Under the pieces are notes generated by a model. It did no database searches. It worked only from the letters and a program-made list of their open reading frames with translations, and was not told the origin of the DNA. From positions 1 through 60,180 of the IMG/VR virus record IMGVR_UViG_3300031965_000029: DNA of 60,180 nt; one strand, written 5' to 3'. Below, piece by piece: positions 1-60,180 of this stretch. The translations under genes were made by a program, and so were the position numbers. Numbering within the stretch: position 1 is the stretch's first letter; each line of letters begins with the position of its first letter. This DNA is from a virus.

Positions 1-119
1 ATACCGATTTTATACGGGTTCCGAAATTTAGGCGCCACGCGGGAGAGGGTAGGTACTCCTATACGAAGACGGGGGGGCGGTCCCCCCAAGGTGGGGGTGC
101 GGGCGCGCGGTGGGGTAAG
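1..119. repeat. Left copy of an exact 119-bp end duplication (identical to 60062-60180); circular-assembly overlap or terminal redundancy
   Basis: Direct comparison of both window ends: ATACCGATTTTATACGGG...GCGCGGTGGGGTAAG is present at both. Confidence 0.95.
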
Positions 120-234
120 AGTACCCCCCACCCCCCTGTATGTGTAGGCGGTAGGGATGGAATGCGCCCTGGCCTGAGACTGAGGGCAGATCGTGGGTGC
201 TACGGGTTAGGGCATGGTGTGTGGTGTGGCATGG

Positions 235-9994: not shown

Positions 9995-10035
9995 TCCATG
10001 GGGTGTCTAGGGCAAAATACTAGGAGGGAATAACG

Positions 10036-10191
10036 ATGAATACCGAAAAAACCAGCCGTGGGCTGGAAGCCGCCCGTTTATTGTGGCGCACCACCGCGCT
10101 CGACATCGTGTTTTGTCGGGTGCCGAGCACGGTAAGCCAGCGCCGGTTGGCGTGGGGGTATTTGAAGCAGCATAGGAGTGAACGAAAATGA
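10036..10191 (+). CDS. small hypothetical protein (51 aa)
   Basis: Hand-translated MNTEKTSRGLEAARLLWRTT...; TAGGAGGG SD; its stop overlaps the next ATG (ATGA). Confidence 0.45.
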   Translation: MNTEKTSRGLEAARLLWRTTALDIVFCRVPSTVSQRRLAWGYLKQHRSERK

Positions 10192-10478
10192 ATGAAGCTG
10201 AACGCCGCGCCTATGGCGAAATCAGGGCGCTATCAAAAACATACCCTGAAATTGCCCTACAGGCCGTCACAGACGGTCATGCCGACGCCATGCAGTCGCT
10301 TCGGGATCGCGCTGTATCTGCTGACAAGGCGCTACTGGCCGCGCTGGCCTTGGTGAAAATGAACAGGCTAAACGCCGCGACGTTGGATCAGTTAAACTCC
10401 ATCGTTGTCGAGAACATCAACCCCAACAATATGTGTGATTTGGAACGCGAGTTTATCGCGGGGAGTGAACGGAAATGA
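10188..10478 (+). CDS. hypothetical protein (96 aa)
   Basis: ORF track; coupled start. Confidence 0.6.
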   Translation: MNEAERRAYGEIRALSKTYPEIALQAVTDGHADAMQSLRDRAVSADKALLAALALVKMNRLNAATLDQLNSIVVENINPNNMCDLEREFIAGSERK

Positions 10479-10735
10479 CAGATAAAGACGACGGTGGATC
10501 AGCGTTCCCATTGCAATATGACCCATATATTGACCATCCCGCGCATGGCCGCGTGCATCGTACCAGCGTTGGTGAGAACGTACAGTCCGGGATGAGCCTA
10601 CGCGACTGGTTCGCTGGTCAGGCGTTGGCGGGGTTTATGGCGTCATATCCTCCAAACGAAAAAATAGATGCCGCCGTAGCCGCGATGTGGTCTTACGAAA
10701 TCGCAGACGCCATGATCGCGGATCGCGCGAAATGA
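10475..10735 (+). CDS. hypothetical protein (86 aa)
   Basis: ORF track; ATGA coupling at both ends. Confidence 0.6.
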   Translation: MTDKDDGGSAFPLQYDPYIDHPAHGRVHRTSVGENVQSGMSLRDWFAGQALAGFMASYPPNEKIDAAVAAMWSYEIADAMIADRAK

Positions 10736-11022
10736 CCACCCTAGCAGCCGTTCGCTCCGCCGTGGCCTTGGAATTTAATGTCTCCGAGGCCGACCTCAGA
10801 GGACTGTCGCGGCGTGCCGATATTGTCAGGGCGCGGCATGTCGCCATGTATCTGGCCCGATCCGAGACCGGCGCATCGTTTCCGAGAATCGCACGGGCAC
10901 TGGCCCGCGTAAACCATACCAGTGTCATCCACGGCATCAAGGCCACTGAAATCCGCATGGAGCGCGATCCTGCGCTGGTCCTGCGCGTTGAGAAACTGAG
11001 GGCGCAGTTACGGTATTCATAA
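10732..11022 (+). CDS. DnaA C-terminal (domain IV)-like HTH protein
   Basis: SRRADIVRARHVAMYLARSETGASFPRIARALARVNHTSVIHGIKATE resembles the DnaA-box-binding domain. ATG 10732 overlaps the upstream stop. Confidence 0.65.
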   Translation: MTTLAAVRSAVALEFNVSEADLRGLSRRADIVRARHVAMYLARSETGASFPRIARALARVNHTSVIHGIKATEIRMERDPALVLRVEKLRAQLRYS

Positions 11023-11091
11023 GGAATATACACTTGGTTGACGTAATGCAGCGTTATGGTAGTGTGGCTGAGTAACCACGGGAGATCAAAT

Positions 11092-11394
11092 ATGGGGCAC
11101 GTAATCAGACAGGGCGCCGCCGCGTACTTAATGACCCGCAAGCTGGGGGCGGATACGTTCATCAACATATATGATGATGGTGAACCGCTGCAATTCAGCG
11201 ACATTGACGAAGCCGCCGAAATGGCGCTTGAAAACGGCTATCTCTACACCGTCATGATCCGAGACGCGGTGCCGATCATGCTGGATTTGGAAAACCACGG
11301 CCAAGAGTTGGCCGACGAACGTCGCAGAGATGAAGCCGATGAGGCCGATTACGAGCGTTCGGTTTCATCTCTCGAACTGGCCGGGAGAGTGTGA
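11092..11394 (+). CDS. hypothetical acidic protein
   Basis: GGGAG SD 8 nt before ATG 11092 (the ORF opens at 11056). Confidence 0.55.
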   Translation: MGHVIRQGAAAYLMTRKLGADTFINIYDDGEPLQFSDIDEAAEMALENGYLYTVMIRDAVPIMLDLENHGQELADERRRDEADEADYERSVSSLELAGRV

Positions 11395-11663
11395 TGACCC
11401 ACTCGACCCGCCCCCTCCACGTCCCCCCGGAATGGCACCGCCAGCGTGTCGCCGAGTCCGTCGCCGAGTTCTGTGCCGGAAACCGTGCCGAGGCCATGAC
11501 TTTGGCGATGATGGCTGGTGTTGATGCCGCCGCGCTTGGGCTACCCGTTGTGGCCGTCCCCCATGAAATCGCGGCGCGGCCCGATCTGTTATCCGAATAC
11601 CGCTGGGGGTTTAAGATTGCCGAGTCCGGGAAGATTAAGCGGGAGCAGGGCGTGTTGATATGA
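11391..11663 (+). CDS. hypothetical protein (90 aa)
   Basis: ATGA-coupled start. Confidence 0.55.
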   Translation: MMTHSTRPLHVPPEWHRQRVAESVAEFCAGNRAEAMTLAMMAGVDAAALGLPVVAVPHEIAARPDLLSEYRWGFKIAESGKIKREQGVLI

Positions 11664-16458: not shown

Positions 16459-16955
16459 CACTTCCTCCCGTCGCTGTTATCCAGCGTCTGATAATAAAAC
16501 GTATGCAGGAACCCCAGCGGCACGTTCTCAGGGCCGCCCATCATCCAGAGCCACAGCGCACGACCGGAACGGCCATTACCATCCATGAATGGATGCAGCG
16601 TTTCATAGAGGCAGTGGATTTCCCACGGTGTCATCCCGGCGTTGTTGACGTTCCAAAGAATTTCCCTCAGACGATGAACGACTTCGTTACCACCCAACGG
16701 CGGCGTATGCTTCCCGACTCGGCAGTTCATTCCGAGTTTATCACGCAACGGTTTTCCGGGGGCGACGACGGCAACAAATTCAGTCAGCGTCAGAACCGTG
16801 ATCTGCGTCCGCGACAACAGACGTTCATGCGCCGCGATTTCCTGCGGCGTCGGTTCGCGCAGGATGCCCTCGATACGGTTGCTCTCACGGACGAACGAGC
16901 GTAGCCCCTCCGTCGTGGCGTATTCGTCGAACAGTCTATCTAACTCGTCACTCAT
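16458..16955 (-). CDS. Fic-domain protein (putative AMP-transferase)
   Basis: Intact Fic motif HPFMDGNGRSGR. N-terminal SNRIEG fits the [ST]xxxE[GN] inhibitory-helix motif. ATG 16955 overlaps the helicase stop. Confidence 0.85.
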   Translation of the reverse strand: MSDELDRLFDEYATTEGLRSFVRESNRIEGILREPTPQEIAAHERLLSRTQITVLTLTEFVAVVAPGKPLRDKLGMNCRVGKHTPPLGGNEVVHRLREILWNVNNAGMTPWEIHCLYETLHPFMDGNGRSGRALWLWMMGGPENVPLGFLHTFYYQTLDNSDGRK

Positions 16956-19441
16956 CACACTCTCCCTTCCTTCTTCGCGTTTCGTTTCTGCATCTTGGCG
17001 ACGAAGACGTGCGCCGCCCAAGACGGTTTCTTATTCGTCTTCTTCGCCATCCTCAACAGGTATTCAAGTTCCTCGACGTTTCCGCCCAGCCGATTCGCTA
17101 AATCGTAGGCTGCCTCGACGGGCTGCATCCCAGCACCAAGACTTGCCTTAAACGCATCGACGTGTTGGCGCTTAAATACGGCTGGATCAATCTGCTGCAA
17201 CTCGCCTTCGACGTAATCCACGGCGCGGCCTTCGACGACAAACGGGGTGCCGCAGAACCGGCACACCGAACCGCCCGGTCGTTGGGCGGCGTAACAGCCC
17301 GGACAGAGTTTAAGCTTTACCTGTGAGGCTGCACCTTTTTTCTGACGCCCCTCACGACCTTCAAGCGACCACACCCGTTCCTCGTCGGGTAGGCCGTGGC
17401 GCTGCACGTTCCCGGCGTGGTCCAGAATGATCGCGGTCTTCCCCGGAATGTACCGCAGCGCCCGTCCACAGAATTGAAGCCACAGCGTCAGCGATTGCGT
17501 CGGTCTGCCGTCGATGACGCACTCCACGGTTGGAACATCGACTCCTTCGGAAAATAAATCTACGTTTGTCAAGACCTTTATGTTACCGGCGCGAAAATTC
17601 TCCATCGCCGATTCGCGTTCGTTAGTCGGGGTGTCGCCGTCAACATGAACCGCAACGATCCCGGCGGCGCAGAACTGAGCCGCAATATGTTTTGAATGTT
17701 CAACCGAAACCGCCCGCAGGATGGCGCGTTTTCCGGCGGCATGTTTCTGATAATGCCGGATCATGTCTCCGGTCACAGTGGGCTTGTCCATTTCGGCGGC
17801 GAGTTCGGCTTGAACATAATCGCCCATGCGGGTATGGGCCTTTCTGAGATCAGGTGCGCCCGGTGCGTACAGTGTGTATGGGGACAAATAATTATTGTCG
17901 ATCAGCCAGCGCACAGATGGCCCCTGAATGATGCGCTGGAAATATTTACCAAGCCCCTTACCATCCGTCCGTTCCGGTGTCGCCGTCAGCCCGATCAGCC
18001 ATGCGTCTGGGAATGCCTGTATCAGTGCTTCCCATGTCTTCGCCGCCAAGTGATGGGCTTCATCAATAACGATCAGCTTCGGCCTCCGCAGCCTGTCCCG
18101 TCGCCGTGATAGCGTCTGTATCGAACCGATCTGTATCGGATGGATGGAGTCTGGAGCAAACCCTGGAGCGATTATGCCGTGGGGGATGCCTCCGAAATTA
18201 AATGTGTTCGTACTCTGCGAAAGCAACTCACGTCTATGTACGCAAAAGAGCGATGGCGTCCCGCGTTCTGCTGCGGTGCCGAGCATGTTGGCCGTCATCA
18301 CGGTATTGTGAGTTACCGTGAAATCACCGAGAAGAAATAAACGATCTGGCCCCTCTAACTCAAACCCAAAATATTCTCCCAATCCGACTGGTTCAGCCTT
18401 TAACCCAGTTACCAGATGGTCTTTTTTTTGTGCGCGCAGTGGAATATTTAAATGGCGCTTACGCAAAAACGGAATCTCTGAAAAATCTCCGGTGATATAG
18501 CACCGATAATAGGTTCCAGTTGCATTGGTATTGGTGCATGTTTTTTGCGTTTCTTTTTTATATGCAGCAAAACCAAGTGATCGCGCAAGAAACAAAAGAT
18601 CATCAAAGAGTTTCTCTACCTTAAATGTGACTTCAAAGCCACCCTTAGACAGATACCCATCAGAATCCAACATTCCTGCTAGTAGAATTTGGCGGTTTGC
18701 GCGTGATGCTGTCTTATAAATATGTGGTATGTGTTTATTTCCCAACAGATTGTGCGATCGCATCAACGCCTGCAAAGATGAAGAACGTGGTTTATCCATT
18801 TGACTAACCGTATTAACTCCAATGCAATTTCCGCGTTGCTCACGAAAACTAATCCGCATACCGATACGTTCTGCATGTCCGCATATCCATTCCACAATCT
18901 CTTTATCGCCAGTGGTTATTTCTGTTGTCCTAGACGTTCCATCACCAAGCCAGAGGCCAAGAAAATATGGGTCTATAGGAAGATCGCATTCGCCTTGAAA
19001 ATTAATCGGAGCCCGCCATCCTTTGTGAACGTGCCGAAACCAAGTGTTAGTTTCATAAAAATCACGAACACAAATATTAACAATAGTTCCTTTGCGCGTG
19101 TCTCCGGCCTTCTCAGCAGTACGTTTTAAGCTGAGAATATGGGCATCGTTGACGATATAGGAATCGCCTTTGACAGGGGTAATCTTGAAAAGCGGACCAA
19201 CCCCTTTGGTGACTCCCTTCACAGTTCTTGGTGTGCTATCTGGCCCCATCACCAAGTCGCCGTTCCTGATTTCTTCCACGGGCACGATTTTCCCATCGGA
19301 CATCATCACGGGAGTTCCTTTTCCAAGGCACTTTCCCGACCCTGTCGGCGCAACAATACATTGAGCACGAATCCCGGCTTTCATACCTGATCGGACCTCG
19401 TTTATGATGTCGGCCTGAAATGGGTGCAGATTCACGGTCAT
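16955..19441 (-). CDS. SF2 DEAH-box DNA helicase with C-terminal zinc ribbon; intein-containing precursor
   Basis: Walker A APTGSGK / T is interrupted by 342 aa. DEAH box LIVIDEAHHL. Helicase C-domain QFCGRALR. CPGC...CRFC ribbon. Confidence 0.85.
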   Translation of the reverse strand: MTVNLHPFQADIINEVRSGMKAGIRAQCIVAPTGSGKCLGKGTPVMMSDGKIVPVEEIRNGDLVMGPDSTPRTVKGVTKGVGPLFKITPVKGDSYIVNDAHILSLKRTAEKAGDTRKGTIVNICVRDFYETNTWFRHVHKGWRAPINFQGECDLPIDPYFLGLWLGDGTSRTTEITTGDKEIVEWICGHAERIGMRISFREQRGNCIGVNTVSQMDKPRSSSLQALMRSHNLLGNKHIPHIYKTASRANRQILLAGMLDSDGYLSKGGFEVTFKVEKLFDDLLFLARSLGFAAYKKETQKTCTNTNATGTYYRCYITGDFSEIPFLRKRHLNIPLRAQKKDHLVTGLKAEPVGLGEYFGFELEGPDRLFLLGDFTVTHNTVMTANMLGTAAERGTPSLFCVHRRELLSQSTNTFNFGGIPHGIIAPGFAPDSIHPIQIGSIQTLSRRRDRLRRPKLIVIDEAHHLAAKTWEALIQAFPDAWLIGLTATPERTDGKGLGKYFQRIIQGPSVRWLIDNNYLSPYTLYAPGAPDLRKAHTRMGDYVQAELAAEMDKPTVTGDMIRHYQKHAAGKRAILRAVSVEHSKHIAAQFCAAGIVAVHVDGDTPTNERESAMENFRAGNIKVLTNVDLFSEGVDVPTVECVIDGRPTQSLTLWLQFCGRALRYIPGKTAIILDHAGNVQRHGLPDEERVWSLEGREGRQKKGAASQVKLKLCPGCYAAQRPGGSVCRFCGTPFVVEGRAVDYVEGELQQIDPAVFKRQHVDAFKASLGAGMQPVEAAYDLANRLGGNVEELEYLLRMAKKTNKKPSWAAHVFVAKMQKRNAKKEGRV
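18305..19330 (-). mobile_element. Class-1 intein with LAGLIDADG homing-endonuclease domain, inserted in the helicase P-loop
   Basis: Starts CLGKGTPVMMSDG directly after GSGK and ends GDFTVTHN before +1 Thr. Block B reads GDSYIVNDAH. LAGLIDADG motifs are FLGLWLGDGTS and LLAGMLDSDGYL. Boundaries were checked at the codon level. Confidence 0.85.
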
Positions 19442-52763: not shown

Positions 52764-52859
52764 ACATAAAACGAGGCATCCTTGTACACGCCTATCGCCC
52801 ACATAGTCGGTATCGAGTCCGGCCTACATCATTCACTACACCGCTCCTGGGGGGACGAA

Positions 52860-53336
52860 ATGAACGACGGCAAAAACTTCTGGACACCGGATAAAATCGA
52901 AGAACTGATCCGGCTGCACAAAAACACTGATCTGACGGCCCGCGAAATCGGAGACCGATTCGGCGTTTCCAAATCAGCCATCATCGGAAAACTGAACCGG
53001 CTCGGCATCAACAGTTCGCACCGGACTCCTGATGACATCGAGGCGGCACGGGAGCAGAAAATCGCTGGACAGCGGGAACGCCGCGCAGAAGCGGCTGCTG
53101 CCCGCGCCAAACTCGAAGCCGATTATGCGAAATCGATTCCGTTGCAGGATCATCCCGCTGGTGGCGGCTGCCGGTTTATCAGCATCGACCCGCGAGACCG
53201 TCCAGAAGGCGTCAGCATCGAAGAAATGTTCTGTGGTCGGCATACGGTTAACGGCACTGATTGGTGCCAGCACCACTACGACCGTGTTTATCAGAAGAAA
53301 CAGCAGCCGACGGTTGCTCATACGGAGGCGGCGTGA
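52860..53336 (+). CDS. gcrA: GcrA-like cell-cycle transcription regulator
   Basis: N-terminal WTPDKIEELIRLHKNTDLTAREIGDRFGVSKSAIIGKLNRLG and C-terminal CRF...FCGRHTVNGTDWCQHHYDRVY match the GcrA family layout. Confidence 0.8.
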   Translation: MNDGKNFWTPDKIEELIRLHKNTDLTAREIGDRFGVSKSAIIGKLNRLGINSSHRTPDDIEAAREQKIAGQRERRAEAAAARAKLEADYAKSIPLQDHPAGGGCRFISIDPRDRPEGVSIEEMFCGRHTVNGTDWCQHHYDRVYQKKQQPTVAHTEAA

Positions 53337-56289: not shown

Positions 56290-56456
56290 AATAATTCTCC
56301 GGTTTCGTATTTTTCCCGGAAATCCATGGCGTTATGGACGAAGACGCCTTCATCGTCAACAGGCCTGCACCAGCAATCAGGCCGAGCCTCATGGTCCCGC
56401 AGGTCGGCCACGGGCATGACGTGATAATTGAGGCAGATCGTTTTATCGGTCATCAT
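56280..56456 (-). CDS. small Cys/His protein (58 aa)
   Basis: GGAGG SD before ATG 56456. MMTDKTICLNYHVMPVADLRDHEARPDCWCRP... The last 10 nt overlap the 5' end of tRNA-Thr. Confidence 0.45.
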   Translation of the reverse strand: MMTDKTICLNYHVMPVADLRDHEARPDCWCRPVDDEGVFVHNAMDFREKYETGELLPS

Positions 56457-56781
56457 GAGCCTCCGTCTCCATCCACGACGCAACCGACGCCAAGTACCCA
56501 AGCGCCGAGGCGTATCCTTCTTCGCCGTCGTGGCCCTCGCGGCCAAGCCGCTCCATCACATCCGCAACACCATACCCGGATTGCAGCAGCAACGACAGCA
56601 TGACGCAGGCATCATCCATCAAGCTATCCATCGCGGAGCCAATTTTCAGGCCCCTGACGAATATCTCGCGCGCCCTGGCGGCATCATCGAACCCAACCGA
56701 TACGATCCATGCAGCACCGCCCCATTCGGCGGTCTGGCTGATCTGGCGTCGGCGGTTCGGCAACTTCACACGGGTCGTCAT
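56443..56781 (-). CDS. hypothetical protein resembling a C-terminal segment of class II ribonucleotide reductases
   Basis: KLPNRRRQISQTAEW...IVSVGFDD...REIFVRGLKIGSAMDSLMDDACVMLSLLLQSG follows the remembered NrdJ pattern LPxRRxxxT...vG...GEIF...K.GS....l..DA...iSl.LQ.G. GGAGGG SD; ATG lies 1 nt after the terL stop. Confidence 0.35.
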   Translation of the reverse strand: MTTRVKLPNRRRQISQTAEWGGAAWIVSVGFDDAARAREIFVRGLKIGSAMDSLMDDACVMLSLLLQSGYGVADVMERLGREGHDGEEGYASALGYLASVASWMETEAHDDR

Positions 56782-56782
56782 A

Positions 56783-59374
56783 TCACCACCCTCCATTCCC
56801 TGTTGGCGTCTCCATTTCCCGAAACGGGTTGTAATCGTCGGAGACGGCCTTGTTCCCGTAACGACGCACCTTATCCGTCTTCGGCGCCACCGGGGCCGCG
56901 AACGTCAGAATCGCCGCATCCATCTCGTCGGGGCTGTACCCGATCTTCCTCTTGACATTATCCTTCGGCTCGATCAGAACCCGGTCCTTACGGAAAATAT
57001 ATGTGGTCTGCGTCAGCGCCGCCGCCAAACGATCATCGTTCGGGATGGCCCCGCCGCGCTTAATCCAGTCCACCATCTCGAACATCATCTCGGTGCGCTT
57101 ATTAACGTACCGTTCCGTTTTCAGAGCCGTCTCGTTGAAATGTATCCCCACCGGGGCGTGGCCCAGCACCTTCAACTGGTCGATCCATCCCGCACCAAAC
57201 CCGCCGGTGCTATCCACAAACGTCGCATCGGCCTTGAACTCGGTCCATTCCCGCGCCACCAGTGACGCACCTTGGATGCTGTCGATATTCCTGTATTTCG
57301 AGAACGGGTACATCTGGAGCCCACGACGCCGCGAGATAATCGAGAAATCCAGCCCATCACGGGCGACATCAACACCCAATATCCGCGCCGTATTCACCAA
57401 CTCAAATTCCCGGTACATCCGGTTCATCGAGGCCCTGACTTCATCCATCGAGATCAGGGAGTTGAAATTCTGTGACGGGAACTGTCCAAGGATGTTCACC
57501 ATGACATACGGATCGTCGCGGCCATACTGTTCGATCTGCTGTCTAGCATATTCCACGGGAATACGCGGCGTCCGCAACGGGTCATCTGGATCAGCCGTGA
57601 TCCTGGCGACATGCCACAAATCCTTAGCCACCGTACAGGCCCGATACAGTGGACCGTCCAGTTTCAACGGGTTCCCCGCCATCACGATATGGGCTTCCTT
57701 CGGAGACGACGCGAAAATGTTCTCGCACACCGGCAGCACCGAGTTCGGGTAATCGCCGGTTTCATCCAGCACCCACATGATGTAATCCGTATGCGGGCCG
57801 CGCAGGGCACTACCAATCGCGGTTGGATCAGCATCCTTCGCCCATGTCCGGGCCTCCAGCTTCCACGTCGCCGGGGACTGACGATACGCTATATACGTCT
57901 TCGTCATGTCGAACAGTTTCTTCAATAACTCCGACTTCTCGTAGAGACGAGCCAGTTCCGTCCACAGCCCCGATGCAAGGTTGTCCTTCGTAATCGAGGT
58001 TACGCCGATCCAGCAATTTGGCCGCGTCAACAGGAAGTTCCAGCACAGAACGGCGAGCGTCCAGCTATTATGGGTAACAATAAAATCGTTGGTCAGGTAG
58101 CAGTGCGACGGATGCTCAACCGTAATACACATCGCGTCTGAGGGATCAACAGCCGTGATGTTATCAATATAACGCGTTAAATATCGTTCCTGGGGATAAC
58201 TCCACCGCACTGCTTTACGGGTGACATAAAACGGATTAAATGGCAGCGTCACCGTGACACGATGGCACGGCAGGCCAGCAATTTTTTCGCGGGTCTGAGG
58301 GTGACGGTAAAACGGCATCTTGATCTTACGCCGTCTCGCTACACCACCAAGCGACCGAACCAGCCATTCGACATCTTCAACCAATCGTTCCGAGGTCACG
58401 TCAAACGACATGCTGCCATCATCGGCAATTGATCCATCGGTGTCCATGAGCCCGCGCAGCACGTCCATTCTGACCTGCTCCGGCGCCCGCTTATATTCAT
58501 CGGGGACGAATCGGTACGGACTACCAAGATGCACCAAGTCCATGGCGCGCAACTTAGCCACCAGACCGTACATGGTTACAGTCTTTCCGCTGGGCGATCT
58601 GCGGACCTTAAAACCACGGCGCTGAATCTCGGCATCAATCTCACGGTCTTGCCACGATCCCGTCGCATTTAGGCGGCAGCCGTCGCCAAGCCATACACCA
58701 AGAACATACGGGTCCAGAGGCAGATCACGGTAGGGATAAAATACCACACCCTGACGCGGTATCTCGAACTGACGGCGGTTTCCGTCTTTCAGCTTGTTGC
58801 GCTCAATGATTTGTTCCGTGTTCAGAACCGAATAACCGTCCCTGGGCGTTGGTGTATAACCACGCTCGATACAGCGTTTTTCGCCAACCGCGCTCCAGGT
58901 TCCGTTCTCATATGCCTTGAAGTGTCTCCGCTCCGTTCTCCCCCTAACCTTCCAGAGATGTTCGCCACAGGCCAGCGTCGAGGTGCCGTCGCAAAACTCC
59001 ACCCTATACATCGGTCTCACACCACGGGGATGGACCGCGACAACCCGCGTCGGCATCCCGTCATCGGCAAATACCCGGTCTCCGACACAGATATCTCCGA
59101 ACCGGCGTTTTCCGTCCGGGGTTTCGATGACCAAATCTACGGGCTGGGCTTTACCCGGCCCAGCACATGCCGCCATCGCGATCCTCGGAGAGGTCCGAAA
59201 TACCCGGAAAACCTCCATCTGCCACGCATCAGGTTCGGTCTGCCACAGATCACGGCACATATCCGATGGATCAAGATACCAGCGACGGAATATCTCGATC
59301 TGCTGCGCCTGCACCGCCGCTGGGTCAGCAGCGCGCGCCATTCGGGCCGGTTTTTTAGCGGGTTTCTTCGTCAT
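56783..59374 (-). CDS. terL: Terminase large subunit, intein-containing precursor
   Basis: Walker A CAGPGK / S is interrupted by 361 aa. Walker B DYIMWVLDETG. A nuclease-type C-terminal half follows. Confidence 0.85.
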   Translation of the reverse strand: MTKKPAKKPARMARAADPAAVQAQQIEIFRRWYLDPSDMCRDLWQTEPDAWQMEVFRVFRTSPRIAMAACAGPGKAQPVDLVIETPDGKRRFGDICVGDRVFADDGMPTRVVAVHPRGVRPMYRVEFCDGTSTLACGEHLWKVRGRTERRHFKAYENGTWSAVGEKRCIERGYTPTPRDGYSVLNTEQIIERNKLKDGNRRQFEIPRQGVVFYPYRDLPLDPYVLGVWLGDGCRLNATGSWQDREIDAEIQRRGFKVRRSPSGKTVTMYGLVAKLRAMDLVHLGSPYRFVPDEYKRAPEQVRMDVLRGLMDTDGSIADDGSMSFDVTSERLVEDVEWLVRSLGGVARRRKIKMPFYRHPQTREKIAGLPCHRVTVTLPFNPFYVTRKAVRWSYPQERYLTRYIDNITAVDPSDAMCITVEHPSHCYLTNDFIVTHNSWTLAVLCWNFLLTRPNCWIGVTSITKDNLASGLWTELARLYEKSELLKKLFDMTKTYIAYRQSPATWKLEARTWAKDADPTAIGSALRGPHTDYIMWVLDETGDYPNSVLPVCENIFASSPKEAHIVMAGNPLKLDGPLYRACTVAKDLWHVARITADPDDPLRTPRIPVEYARQQIEQYGRDDPYVMVNILGQFPSQNFNSLISMDEVRASMNRMYREFELVNTARILGVDVARDGLDFSIISRRRGLQMYPFSKYRNIDSIQGASLVAREWTEFKADATFVDSTGGFGAGWIDQLKVLGHAPVGIHFNETALKTERYVNKRTEMMFEMVDWIKRGGAIPNDDRLAAALTQTTYIFRKDRVLIEPKDNVKRKIGYSPDEMDAAILTFAAPVAPKTDKVRRYGNKAVSDDYNPFREMETPTGNGGW
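58067..59149 (-). mobile_element. Intein with LAGLIDADG homing-endonuclease domain and class-3 hallmarks (Ala1, Trp-B12, Cys-F4, Thr-G5) in the TerL P-loop
   Basis: Starts AQPVDLVIETPDG after GPGK and ends NDFIVTHN before +1 Ser. Block B GTSTLACGEHLW. Block F DAMCITVE. LAGLIDADG motifs VLGVWLGDGCR and LRGLMDTDGSI. Boundaries were checked at the codon level. Confidence 0.8.
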
Positions 59375-59450
59375 CAGTCCGCGATCATATCTATGTCAAC
59401 ACATCATTATATCCGGGGCGCGCGCGGCGTCAATCCGGGCACTTTCAGCG

Positions 59451-59792
59451 TCACCGGGAACCCCCGACACGCCCTGCCCGAACCATCGCAGCGTACAGCC
59501 CTGCCCAACCCAGAATCGGGTCACGCTCCGACGACAGACGGCCTGCATCAATAATCCCCTCCGTCGCATCAACCGGCACCACGGCAAGGCCGCGCGCAGC
59601 CAGCGCAGCGAACACCGCAACGGCCTCAGAGTGGGCAACCCAGACATGCTCGGTGTCAACCTGTTCGTTAAACTCACCCAGAGAGCCATACATATCTGGA
59701 TCGCAGTCGTAGAACCGGGCTTTCAGTATCGCACGGGCTACAGCCTCGATGGCAGCGTCAGCCTGCTTCGCAGCGTCATTCATCCCAACCAT
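59451..59792 (-). CDS. hypothetical protein (113 aa)
   Basis: ORF track; alternative ATG at 59783. Confidence 0.55.
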   Translation of the reverse strand: MVGMNDAAKQADAAIEAVARAILKARFYDCDPDMYGSLGEFNEQVDTEHVWVAHSEAVAVFAALAARGLAVVPVDATEGIIDAGRLSSERDPILGWAGLYAAMVRAGRVGGSR

Positions 59793-59991
59793 CCGCCTTG
59801 CACTCCGCGATCAACGCCGCTGTGTCCTGCTTCAACTCAGCCTTATCATCCGCATAACGAACCGCGTTCCACGCACCGCCGTCCAGTGCGCCCCATCTCT
59901 TTACCAGCGCCAGCAACTCGCCGTTCAGCGCACGCAGCCGCTCGATTTCAGCCAGATCAGCCGCCCAACCCGTATTGCTACCATCTTCCAT
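59776..59991 (-). CDS. hypothetical protein (71 aa)
   Basis: AAGGAGGG SD before ATG 59991. The ORF-track extension to 60150 runs into the terminal duplication. Confidence 0.55.
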   Translation of the reverse strand: MEDGSNTGWAADLAEIERLRALNGELLALVKRWGALDGGAWNAVRYADDKAELKQDTAALIAECKADGWDE

Positions 59992-60061
59992 GAGACCCTC
60001 CTTAATCCATTCCACCAACACTACCACCGCTCCAGGTGCTGTCAACACATATTCACCATAA

Positions 60062-60180
60062 ATACCGATTTTATACGGGTTCCGAAATTTAGGCGCCACG
60101 CGGGAGAGGGTAGGTACTCCTATACGAAGACGGGGGGGCGGTCCCCCCAAGGTGGGGGTGCGGGCGCGCGGTGGGGTAAG
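60062..60180. repeat. Right copy of the exact 119-bp end duplication
   Basis: Identical to bases 1-119. Confidence 0.95.

Follow-up and report, generated by a model that had tools for sequence, protein, structure and literature searches.

The stretch of DNA analysed here (hereafter the window) covers positions 1 to 60,180 of the virus record IMGVR_UViG_3300031965_000029. Its gene for the large subunit of the terminase (TerL) is interrupted, inside the codons of the ATP-binding Walker A motif, by an additional in-frame domain. With high confidence, we interpret this domain as a complete and very probably functional class-3 intein, equipped with a LAGLIDADG endonuclease, which lies between the Lys and the Ser of the TerL Walker A motif in an uncultivated podovirus with a genome of approximately 60 kb. 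This reading is carried by the boundaries of the insert, its residue signature, its fold, its homology to experimentally proven class-3 inteins, its presence/absence polymorphism and its sporadic distribution, all of which were observed here.

The TerL precursor is encoded on the minus strand at positions 56783..59374, by an open reading frame (ORF) that is translated without interruption into 863 amino acids followed by a stop codon. The intein occupies positions 58067..59149 (minus strand) and comprises 361 amino acids, from Ala1 to Asn361 (residues 76-436 of the precursor; intein residues are numbered from Ala1 hereafter). It begins with AQPVDLVIETPDG and ends with DFIVTHN. The junctions CAGPGK/AQPV and IVTHN/SWTLAV (where the slash indicates the limit between extein and intein) separate the Lys and the Ser of the Walker A motif. 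The initial annotation had placed a 361-residue insert at 58067-59149 inside the TerL Walker A motif, and the translation shows that these limits are exact to the base. The N-extein (59150..59374, minus strand, residues 1-75) ends in the first part of the Walker A motif, CAGPGK (...AMAACAGPGK); in the translation, this N-terminal segment ends ...RIAMAACAGPGK. The C-extein (56783..58066, minus strand, residues 437-863 and the stop codon) starts with SWTLAVLCWNFLL, the first residue of which is Ser+1. This residue, Ser437 of the precursor, is both the Ser of the Walker A motif and the predicted nucleophile of the splicing reaction. Removal of the intein puts the canonical Walker A sequence GxxGK[S/T] (here GPGKS) back in TerL, with the predicted junction ...AACAGPGK-SWTLAVLCWNFLLTR.

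The same limits are found when the window is compared with a sibling that lacks the insert. The intein-free TerL P0001 (503 amino acids) is encoded at positions 10001..11512 of the metagenomic contig L005 (JGI 3300037483, Ga0395805_0002041). Its exteins share 99% amino acid identity and about 93% nucleotide identity with those of the window; the uninterrupted site reads CAGPGKSWTLAV. This allele supports the earlier description of an insert that begins with Ala, ends with IVTHN before a Ser and restores GPGKS upon excision. Because a 99%-identical sibling TerL lacks exactly those 361 residues, the insert is a precisely delimited intein. In the BLASTN comparison of the two contigs, the alignment breaks exactly at the insert (positions 10228/10225 of L005 corresponding to positions 59150/58070 of the window), and the empty junction of L005 is GCATGTGCTGGGCCGGGTAAA/AGCTGGACACTCGCC. 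The structural modules of the two phages share 93-95% nucleotide identity, while the early region is less similar or unaligned. The TerL of the Xanthomonas phage SAC is also devoid of the insert and reads ACKGPGK/TAVLAWLCWNFLL, that is GPGK/T. The insertion is thus in frame, at a conserved functional site, and absent to the residue from the TerL proteins of both L005 and SAC.

The host protein was identified as TerL because the spliced sequence matches the family phrog_2 of the PHROGs database ("terminase large subunit", E=1.3e-22), because it is homologous to annotated TerL proteins (47.8% identity in TBLASTN with those of the Xanthomonas phages SAC and CP2), and because a gene encoding a T7-type head-tail connector is located about 1.1 kb downstream, with small ORFs in between. 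Its N-terminal part is an ASCE ATPase that displays both Walker motifs, the Walker A motif GPGKS being rebuilt by the predicted splicing. The Walker B motif is found in the C-extein as YIMWVLDETGD (VLDE), and the residues Asp537 and Glu538 are invariant in the alignment A1. No terminase family of Pfam reached its threshold with either the full precursor or the spliced TerL; Pfam being uninformative for this gene, the identification was based on PHROGs and on direct homologues.

Blocks A, B, F and G are all present in the intein, together with an Asn at its C-terminus, followed by Ser+1, and the fold of the HINT splicing domain. The N-terminal HINT lobe (58937..59149, minus strand, intein residues 1-71) aligns with the class-3 DnaB mini-inteins of known structure 6bs8 and 6rix. 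It contains block A (59111..59149, minus strand) and block B (58946..58987, minus strand; GTSTLACGEHLWKV), in which His64 and Trp66 correspond to the positions B:10 and B:12 (block and position in the block). The codon of Trp66, the W of the Trp-Cys-Thr (WCT) triplet of class 3, is located at 58952..58954 (minus strand) and aligns with Trp67 of MP-Be, the class-3 prototype from mycobacteriophage Bethlehem, and with the corresponding Trp of 6bs8/6rix. The codon of Cys61 (B:7), three residues before His64, is found at 58967..58969 (minus strand). The C-terminal splicing lobe (58067..58171, minus strand, intein residues 327-361) includes block F (58094..58138, minus strand; DAMCITVEHPSHCYL) and block G (58067..58087, minus strand; FIVTHN, then Ser+1). 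In block F, the codon of Cys341 (F:4; 58127..58129, minus strand), the predicted initiating nucleophile, aligns with Cys320 of MP-Be and with the catalytic Cys of 6bs8/6rix. In block G, the codons of Thr359, His360 and Asn361 (G:5-7) span 58067..58075 (minus strand), and Asn361 is predicted to cyclise and to release the intein. Residue 1 is an Ala (codon GCC), not one of the nucleophiles Cys, Ser or Thr. The sequence hence combines a non-nucleophilic residue 1, the WCT triplet, a His at B:10 and a Ser at +1, which together characterize the class-3 inteins. Among the PDB sequences, the class-3 DnaB inteins are the top matches in PHMMER (6bs8, E=3e-12; 6rix, E=6e-12; about 1e-12 to 1e-11 across 6bs8 and 6rix/6riy), with the Trp, the block-F Cys and the THN motif aligned. 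The alignment to the Bethlehem class-3 reference, which had been proposed as a check, runs from end to end with the signature residues in shared columns, and the WCT residues put forward in the initial annotation are confirmed as Trp66, Cys341 and Thr359. A class-1 intein was ruled out by the presence of Ala at residue 1, where this class needs Cys, Ser or Thr. A class-2 (KlbA-like) intein was ruled out because the WCT triplet is present and because residue +1 is Ser rather than Cys.

This signature is conserved far beyond the window. An alignment of 86 sequences with an intein at the same site reveals that the residues His64, Trp66, Cys341, Thr359, His360 and Asn361 are invariant. From the 120 best database matches to the precursor, 117 have an insert at the same site, and all 117 display the H-W...C...THN signature. 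When the N-terminal junction is present, none of these same-site homologues has C, S or T as residue 1; the residues observed there are A, L, G, E, M, Q, D, V and P. At exactly this site, the metagenomic TerL P-loop inteins (P0002-P0120) amount to over 110 alleles, with intein identities of 34-63%, and the wider intein family is represented by 3,451 cluster representatives at E≤1e-30 (exhaustive search of representatives). A Cys at B:7 almost always goes together with Ala1 (A...C..H.W...C...THN), a combination detected in about 45 of the 117 TerL P-loop inteins; this pairing may be a functional signal or may just mark a subclade.

Between the two splicing lobes, the homing-endonuclease region extends from 58172 to 58936 (minus strand, intein residues ~72-326), with limits that are approximate since they were taken from the alignment to the mini-inteins and from the secondary structure of the model. 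It is composed of a two-motif LAGLIDADG domain and of a DNA-recognition region similar to that of PI-SceI. The first LAGLIDADG motif (block C; 58676..58708, minus strand) reads YVLGVWLGDGC (intein residues 148-158) and contains the catalytic Asp156. The second (block E; 58430..58462, minus strand) reads VLRGLMDTDGS (residues 230-240) and contains the catalytic Asp238. The two motifs already mentioned in the initial annotation are thereby located, and both catalytic Asp are present and invariant in the 86 sequences, as are Gly155, Gly157 and Asp236; Gly239 is conserved in at least 90% of them. The Pfam family LAGLIDADG_3 matches the intein with 24.6 bits (cut-off 22.5). An AlphaFold2 model, built on the 86-sequence alignment of same-site homologues, has a mean predicted local distance difference test (pLDDT) of 96.9 and a predicted template modelling score (pTM) of 0.93. 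The best match of this model in the PDB with Foldseek is PI-SceI, over the full length (TMq 0.66-0.72), and other endonuclease-bearing inteins such as PI-PfuI are also recovered. At the level of domains, the endonuclease matches I-DmoI, and the N-terminal lobe matches the class-3 DnaB inteins with a root mean square deviation of 1.4-1.7 Å and 42-43% identity over 69 columns. The two motifs, with their catalytic acidic residues, belong to an alpha-beta-beta-alpha-beta-beta-alpha pseudo-dimer fold. The architecture suggested by the model is therefore that of a HINT splicing domain into which a LAGLIDADG endonuclease with two motifs has been inserted, along with a region for DNA recognition.

The mechanism proposed below is taken from the biochemistry of the class-3 family (PMC2807308, PMC5222942, PMC7664689). 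TerL would be translated as a precursor of 863 amino acids, in which the split P-loop would allow neither binding nor hydrolysis of ATP. Because residue 1 is an Ala, splicing is expected to start at Cys341. Activated by His64, Trp66 and Thr359, this residue would attack the bond between Lys75 and Ala76 of the precursor and form a branched intermediate with a thioester in block F. The N-extein would then be moved from this thioester to Ser+1, and Asn361, helped by His360, would cyclise and release the intein. Finally, an O-to-N acyl shift would join GPGK to Ser and yield an active TerL of 502 amino acids. In addition, the excised intein or the precursor might cut the intein-free TerL alleles of co-infecting relatives such as L005, and repair would copy the intein into them (homing). 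The presumed homing site in the intein-free allele is about GGGCCGGGTAAA/AGCTGGAC, also written GGGCCGGGTAAA/AGCTGGACAC. The window and L005 represent a natural pair of intein-plus and intein-minus phages with about 93% nucleotide identity, which is usable for a study of class-3 homing.

Several observations weigh against the interpretation as a functional and mobile class-3 intein. The position B:7 is occupied by Cys61 instead of the usual Thr, Ser or Asn; this position is dispensable in the class-3 prototype (PMC2807308). The Hint models of Pfam match the precursor only below their cut-offs, as is usual for divergent inteins. The grafting of the WCT triplet onto a class-1 intein did not result in a working class-3 intein (PMC7664689), so the triplet alone is not a sufficient proof of the mechanism. 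Neither an intein-only word-index search nor the exhaustive search of representatives detected a closer relative or donor above about 64% identity, the nearest ones being at 62-64%. Near the junction, the window and the intein-free allele differ at -30, -27, +9 and +37 with an overall divergence of about 7%, and no obvious tract of elevated divergence, of the kind that co-conversion would leave, flanks the insert. Finally, the splicing reaction, the cleavage by the endonuclease and its target are, for this particular protein, inferred from characterized relatives.

The residue Cys61 and the outcome of the grafting experiment lend themselves to another reading, in which splicing would not follow the class-3 pathway. 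Ser+1 would attack the N-terminal junction directly, in a manner similar to class 2, or another Cys such as Cys61 would be the first nucleophile with the assistance of Cys341. Given what the residue at B:7 does in other inteins, Cys61 should be situated near the N-terminal scissile bond (PMC2807308), and Cys61 and Ala1 recur together in many homologues. However, many members at the same site keep the invariant Cys at F:4 although their residue B:7 is Gly, Thr, Ser or Asp, so that the Cys at B:7 cannot be the general nucleophile, and the equivalent C320 is absolutely required in the prototype (PMC2807308). The class-2 inteins, which have no N-terminal nucleophile, are devoid of the WCT triplet and use Cys+1 for the direct attack on the N-terminal junction (PMC2807308), whereas the TerL intein has Ser+1 and the WCT triplet. 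We consider such a pathway very unlikely, and class-3 splicing through Cys341 is retained.

The distribution of the intein points to a sporadic, mobile and fairly recent occupant of TerL in this lineage. The nearest TerL (P0001, 99% identical at the amino acid level and about 93% at the nucleotide level) has no intein, and a search with the exteins only showed that 116 of the 120 nearest TerL proteins lack it. The identities of inteins and exteins are also uncoupled, as illustrated by P0023, with an intein identity of 63% and an extein identity of 37%. Finally, intein and exteins differ in the GC content at the third codon position (GC3), with 0.59 and 0.71, respectively (permutation p=0.00015), whereas their overall GC contents are similar (54.8% and 57.2%). 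The GC3 of the intein is near the genome mean (0.62±0.06); the high value of the TerL exteins is found in the portal and capsid genes as well. An old association had been tentatively suggested from a similar base composition of intein and host gene; given the difference in GC3, the empty TerL proteins and the uncoupled identities, this suggestion does not stand for the window. At the level of the family, more than 110 alleles with identities of 34-63% attest to a broad and diverse link between this intein clade and the TerL P-loop, a link that is probably old although individual occupancy turns over.

The eight cysteines of the TerL intein, among which Cys61 at B:7, leave room for a regulatory role, in which the intein would be a domesticated module whose gated splicing (for example by a redox effect on the catalytic Cys) times TerL activation and packaging to host physiology. 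The DnaBi1 intein of M. smegmatis, which is the closest solved relative and also resides in a P-loop, is reversibly inhibited by oxidation through a disulfide with the F:4 Cys (PMC6195587), and H2O2 inhibits the N-terminal cleavage of MchDnaB1 (PMC7664689). Nevertheless, the intein is missing in the 99%-identical sibling as well as in 116 of the 120 nearest TerL proteins, which indicates that it is dispensable, and the intact and conserved active site of the endonuclease fits a selection for mobility. The partner cysteine of DnaBi1, Cys48, is moreover replaced by Met in the TerL intein. The domesticated module thus appears highly improbable. The narrower proposal starts from the recurrent pairing of Ala1 with a Cys at B:7 in dozens of TerL and PhoH P-loop inteins: Cys61, which may be a neighbour of the catalytic Cys341, could form a reversible disulfide with it and make the maturation of TerL conditional on redox state. 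It is conceivable but itself unlikely; if true, it would tie the production of virions to the redox state of the infected cell and would extend the "cysteine toggle" of DnaBi1 to a phage motor, with a different partner Cys.

There is also very little chance that the insert is a degenerate remnant that has lost splicing, in a TerL that would be either dead (in a defective phage) or working with 361 additional residues in its P-loop: although identity to the closest intein sampled reaches only 62-64%, the Pfam Hint scores are below threshold and the genome comes from a metagenome, the ORF is open across 863 codons, all the residues shown to matter by mutagenesis of the prototype are present and invariant in the 86 homologues, the model folds confidently (pLDDT 96.9), the identical protein is found on two contigs, the 120-nucleotide terminal repeat fits a complete genome, and an insertion that splits the Lys and the Ser is incompatible with an ATPase according to the established knowledge on P-loops and the discussion in PMC6195587. 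A complete class-3 intein, very probably functional, therefore remains our interpretation of the insert.

Concerning the genome as a whole, the first 40 nucleotides of the window recur at position 60061, and the last 120 nucleotides (60061..60180) apparently repeat positions 1..120. Such a terminal direct repeat arises when a genome that is circular or terminally redundant is assembled, and it implies that the genome is complete, with a length of about 60,060 bp. An ENA contig of 59,962 bp encodes an identical TerL and is circularly permuted with respect to the window. A gene encoding a GcrA-like cell-cycle regulator (52782..53336, plus strand, 184 amino acids, PF07750) is located between the portal and capsid modules, and the TerL of a prophage of Rhizobium sp. 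BK313 (P0185) is 57% identical to that of the window. On the basis of these two observations, the host of the phage is probably an alphaproteobacterium. Around the TerL gene, an ORF of 117 amino acids (56443..56796, minus strand) overlaps the TerL stop codon; it gives a weak match to the TSCPD domain (PF12637), has no PHROG match and is kept in the sibling contig L005. Two ORFs of the plus strand, 58811..59554 and 58917..59993, extend over the intein, antisense to the strongly supported coding region of TerL, in GC-rich DNA.

The window also contains a second intein (18305..19330, minus strand, 342 amino acids), inside the ORF 16955..19441 (minus strand), which encodes a superfamily 2 (SF2) DNA helicase (PHROG phrog_16). 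It is inserted in a P-loop as well, between the Lys and the Thr of the Walker A motif (APTGSGK/CLGKGTPV...FTVTHN/TVMTANML), and displays the signature of class 1, with Cys1, a block B (NDAHIL) without Trp at B:12, and Gly instead of Cys at F:4. The two LAGLIDADG motifs read LGLWLGDGT and LLAGMLDSDGY. The profile of the TerL inteins recovers this second intein with 115.7 bits (E=5e-35), and its identity with the TerL intein is 26%. The helicase and TerL inteins both being in the window, a class-1 and a class-3 intein occupy two P-loops of one phage.

For the annotation of this genome, the consequence is that the true TerL is the predicted spliced product of 502 amino acids, whereas the ORF of 863 amino acids represents the TerL precursor together with the intein. 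Since neither the terminase nor the Hint domain is recognized by Pfam, such genes are called "hypothetical" by automated pipelines, as exemplified by Mwe-JY05 and by the Bethlehem record. More generally, metagenomes abound in class-3 inteins of the TerL P-loop, which extend far beyond the actinobacteriophages. No new mechanism is revealed here, and no question of long standing is opened. The class-3 chemistry, its connection with TerL and with the P-loops of ATPases, and the phage origin proposed for it were all described between 2010 and 2016. The additions of the present analysis are modest: a probable alphaproteobacterial context, a natural intein-plus/intein-minus pair and a recurrent Cys at B:7.

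Inteins without an N-terminal nucleophile were reported by Tori et al. in 2010 in DnaB, RecG, SNF2 and phage terminase large subunits, most of them in ATPase P-loops (PMC2807308). The initial annotation had called the chemistry of such an intein in the packaging ATPase unusual. The class-3 reading holds, but the implied rarity is exaggerated, phage TerL hosts and P-loop sites having been listed since 2010 (PMC2807308). Hundreds of TerL inteins of actinobacteriophages, class 3 included, were subsequently catalogued by Kelley et al. in 2016 (PMC5050341) and in a 2025 preprint. For TerL inteins of mycobacteriophages, among which the class-3 intein of Bethlehem, splicing and cleavage of intein-free alleles were obtained in vitro (PMC5050341).

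The Bethlehem intein MP-Be is the prototype for which splicing, the requirement for the F:4 Cys and the endonuclease activity were shown by experiment (PMC2807308; PMC5050341). Its sequence, rebuilt from the Bethlehem genome, comprises 341 amino acids (PLALNTEV...ILTHN) and reproduces the published numbering of His65, Trp67, Cys320, Thr339, His340, Asn341 and Thr+1. Like the intein of the window (361 amino acids), it belongs to class 3, contains a two-motif LAGLIDADG endonuclease and is hosted by a phage TerL. The two inteins align over their full length with 29% identity, the His (B:10), Trp (B:12), Cys (F:4), THN motif and hydroxyl residue at +1 falling in shared columns; Tyr351 of the window aligns with Phe330 of MP-Be (F:15), and His349 with His328. 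They differ in residue 1 (Pro in Bethlehem, Ala in the window), in B:7 (Ser and Cys, respectively) and in the insertion site, which has been described as a poorly conserved helix in Bethlehem (the TerL1-c site, SQDQ/P...HN/T) and is the Walker A loop in the window (GPGK/A...HN/S). The host phage is actinobacterial for Bethlehem and probably alphaproteobacterial for the window. Although the prototype is known as the "Bethlehem DnaB" intein, it resides in TerL, which is encoded by an ORF of 903 amino acids immediately upstream of the portal gene (L008 4261..6972, plus strand, corresponding to AY500153 7260..9971). With the intein profile, HMMSEARCH detected no intein in the replication arm of AY500153, and the DnaB-like helicase gp62 (273 amino acids) is devoid of it. 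Since the intein lies in the TerL ORF and not in gp62, the DnaB designation is a misnomer; Kelley et al. refer to this intein as TerL1-c, Bethlehem gp10 (PMC5050341). The record AY500153 annotates the intein-bearing ORF as "hypothetical protein gp11".

Other TerL proteins share the precise insertion site. In the Salmonella phages 66FD, 65FD and PAT1 (Uetakevirus), in the Microcystis phage Mwe-JY05 and in the Clavibacter phage CN1A, an intein separates the GK and the S of the TerL Walker A motif, as in the window. These inteins display H-x-W, the F:4 Cys, THN/S and LAGLIDADG motifs, with Ala, Ala and Asp as first residues. They are 31-35% identical to the intein of the window, whereas their exteins are only 25-29% identical overall to its TerL. 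An assignment of these TerL inteins to class 3 was not found in any record or paper, and only the record of CN1A states "contains intein". The ORF of Mwe-JY05 (L003 1387..4047) is labelled "hypothetical protein", and that of 66FD (L002 1363..3813) is labelled "terminase large subunit" with no mention of the intein. The metagenomic TerL P-loop inteins (P0002-P0120) have the same site and signature as the intein of the window and are uncharacterised sequences. The inteins found in the P-loop of PhoH-family ATPases (P0382-P0446; AGTSK/A...HN/T) are likewise uncharacterised and differ by their host protein; most of them share Ala1, the Cys at B:7 and the H-W-C-THN signature.

The DnaB-1 inteins of M. 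smegmatis (6BS8) and M. chimaera (6RIX/6RIY) are also class-3 inteins located in an ATPase P-loop, with an aligned WCT triplet. In contrast to the intein of the window, these are mini-inteins without endonuclease, hosted by a cellular DnaB helicase. Their position B:7 is an Asp (in the motif DxxH), and the redox residue Cys48 of DnaBi1 corresponds to a Met in the window. Finally, the yeast VMA1 intein PI-SceI (1EF0/1LWS) has the overall architecture of the intein of the window, with a HINT splicing domain, a region for DNA recognition and a LAGLIDADG endonuclease of two motifs, but it belongs to class 1 (Cys1 and an Asp-type F:4) and is only 13-17% identical.

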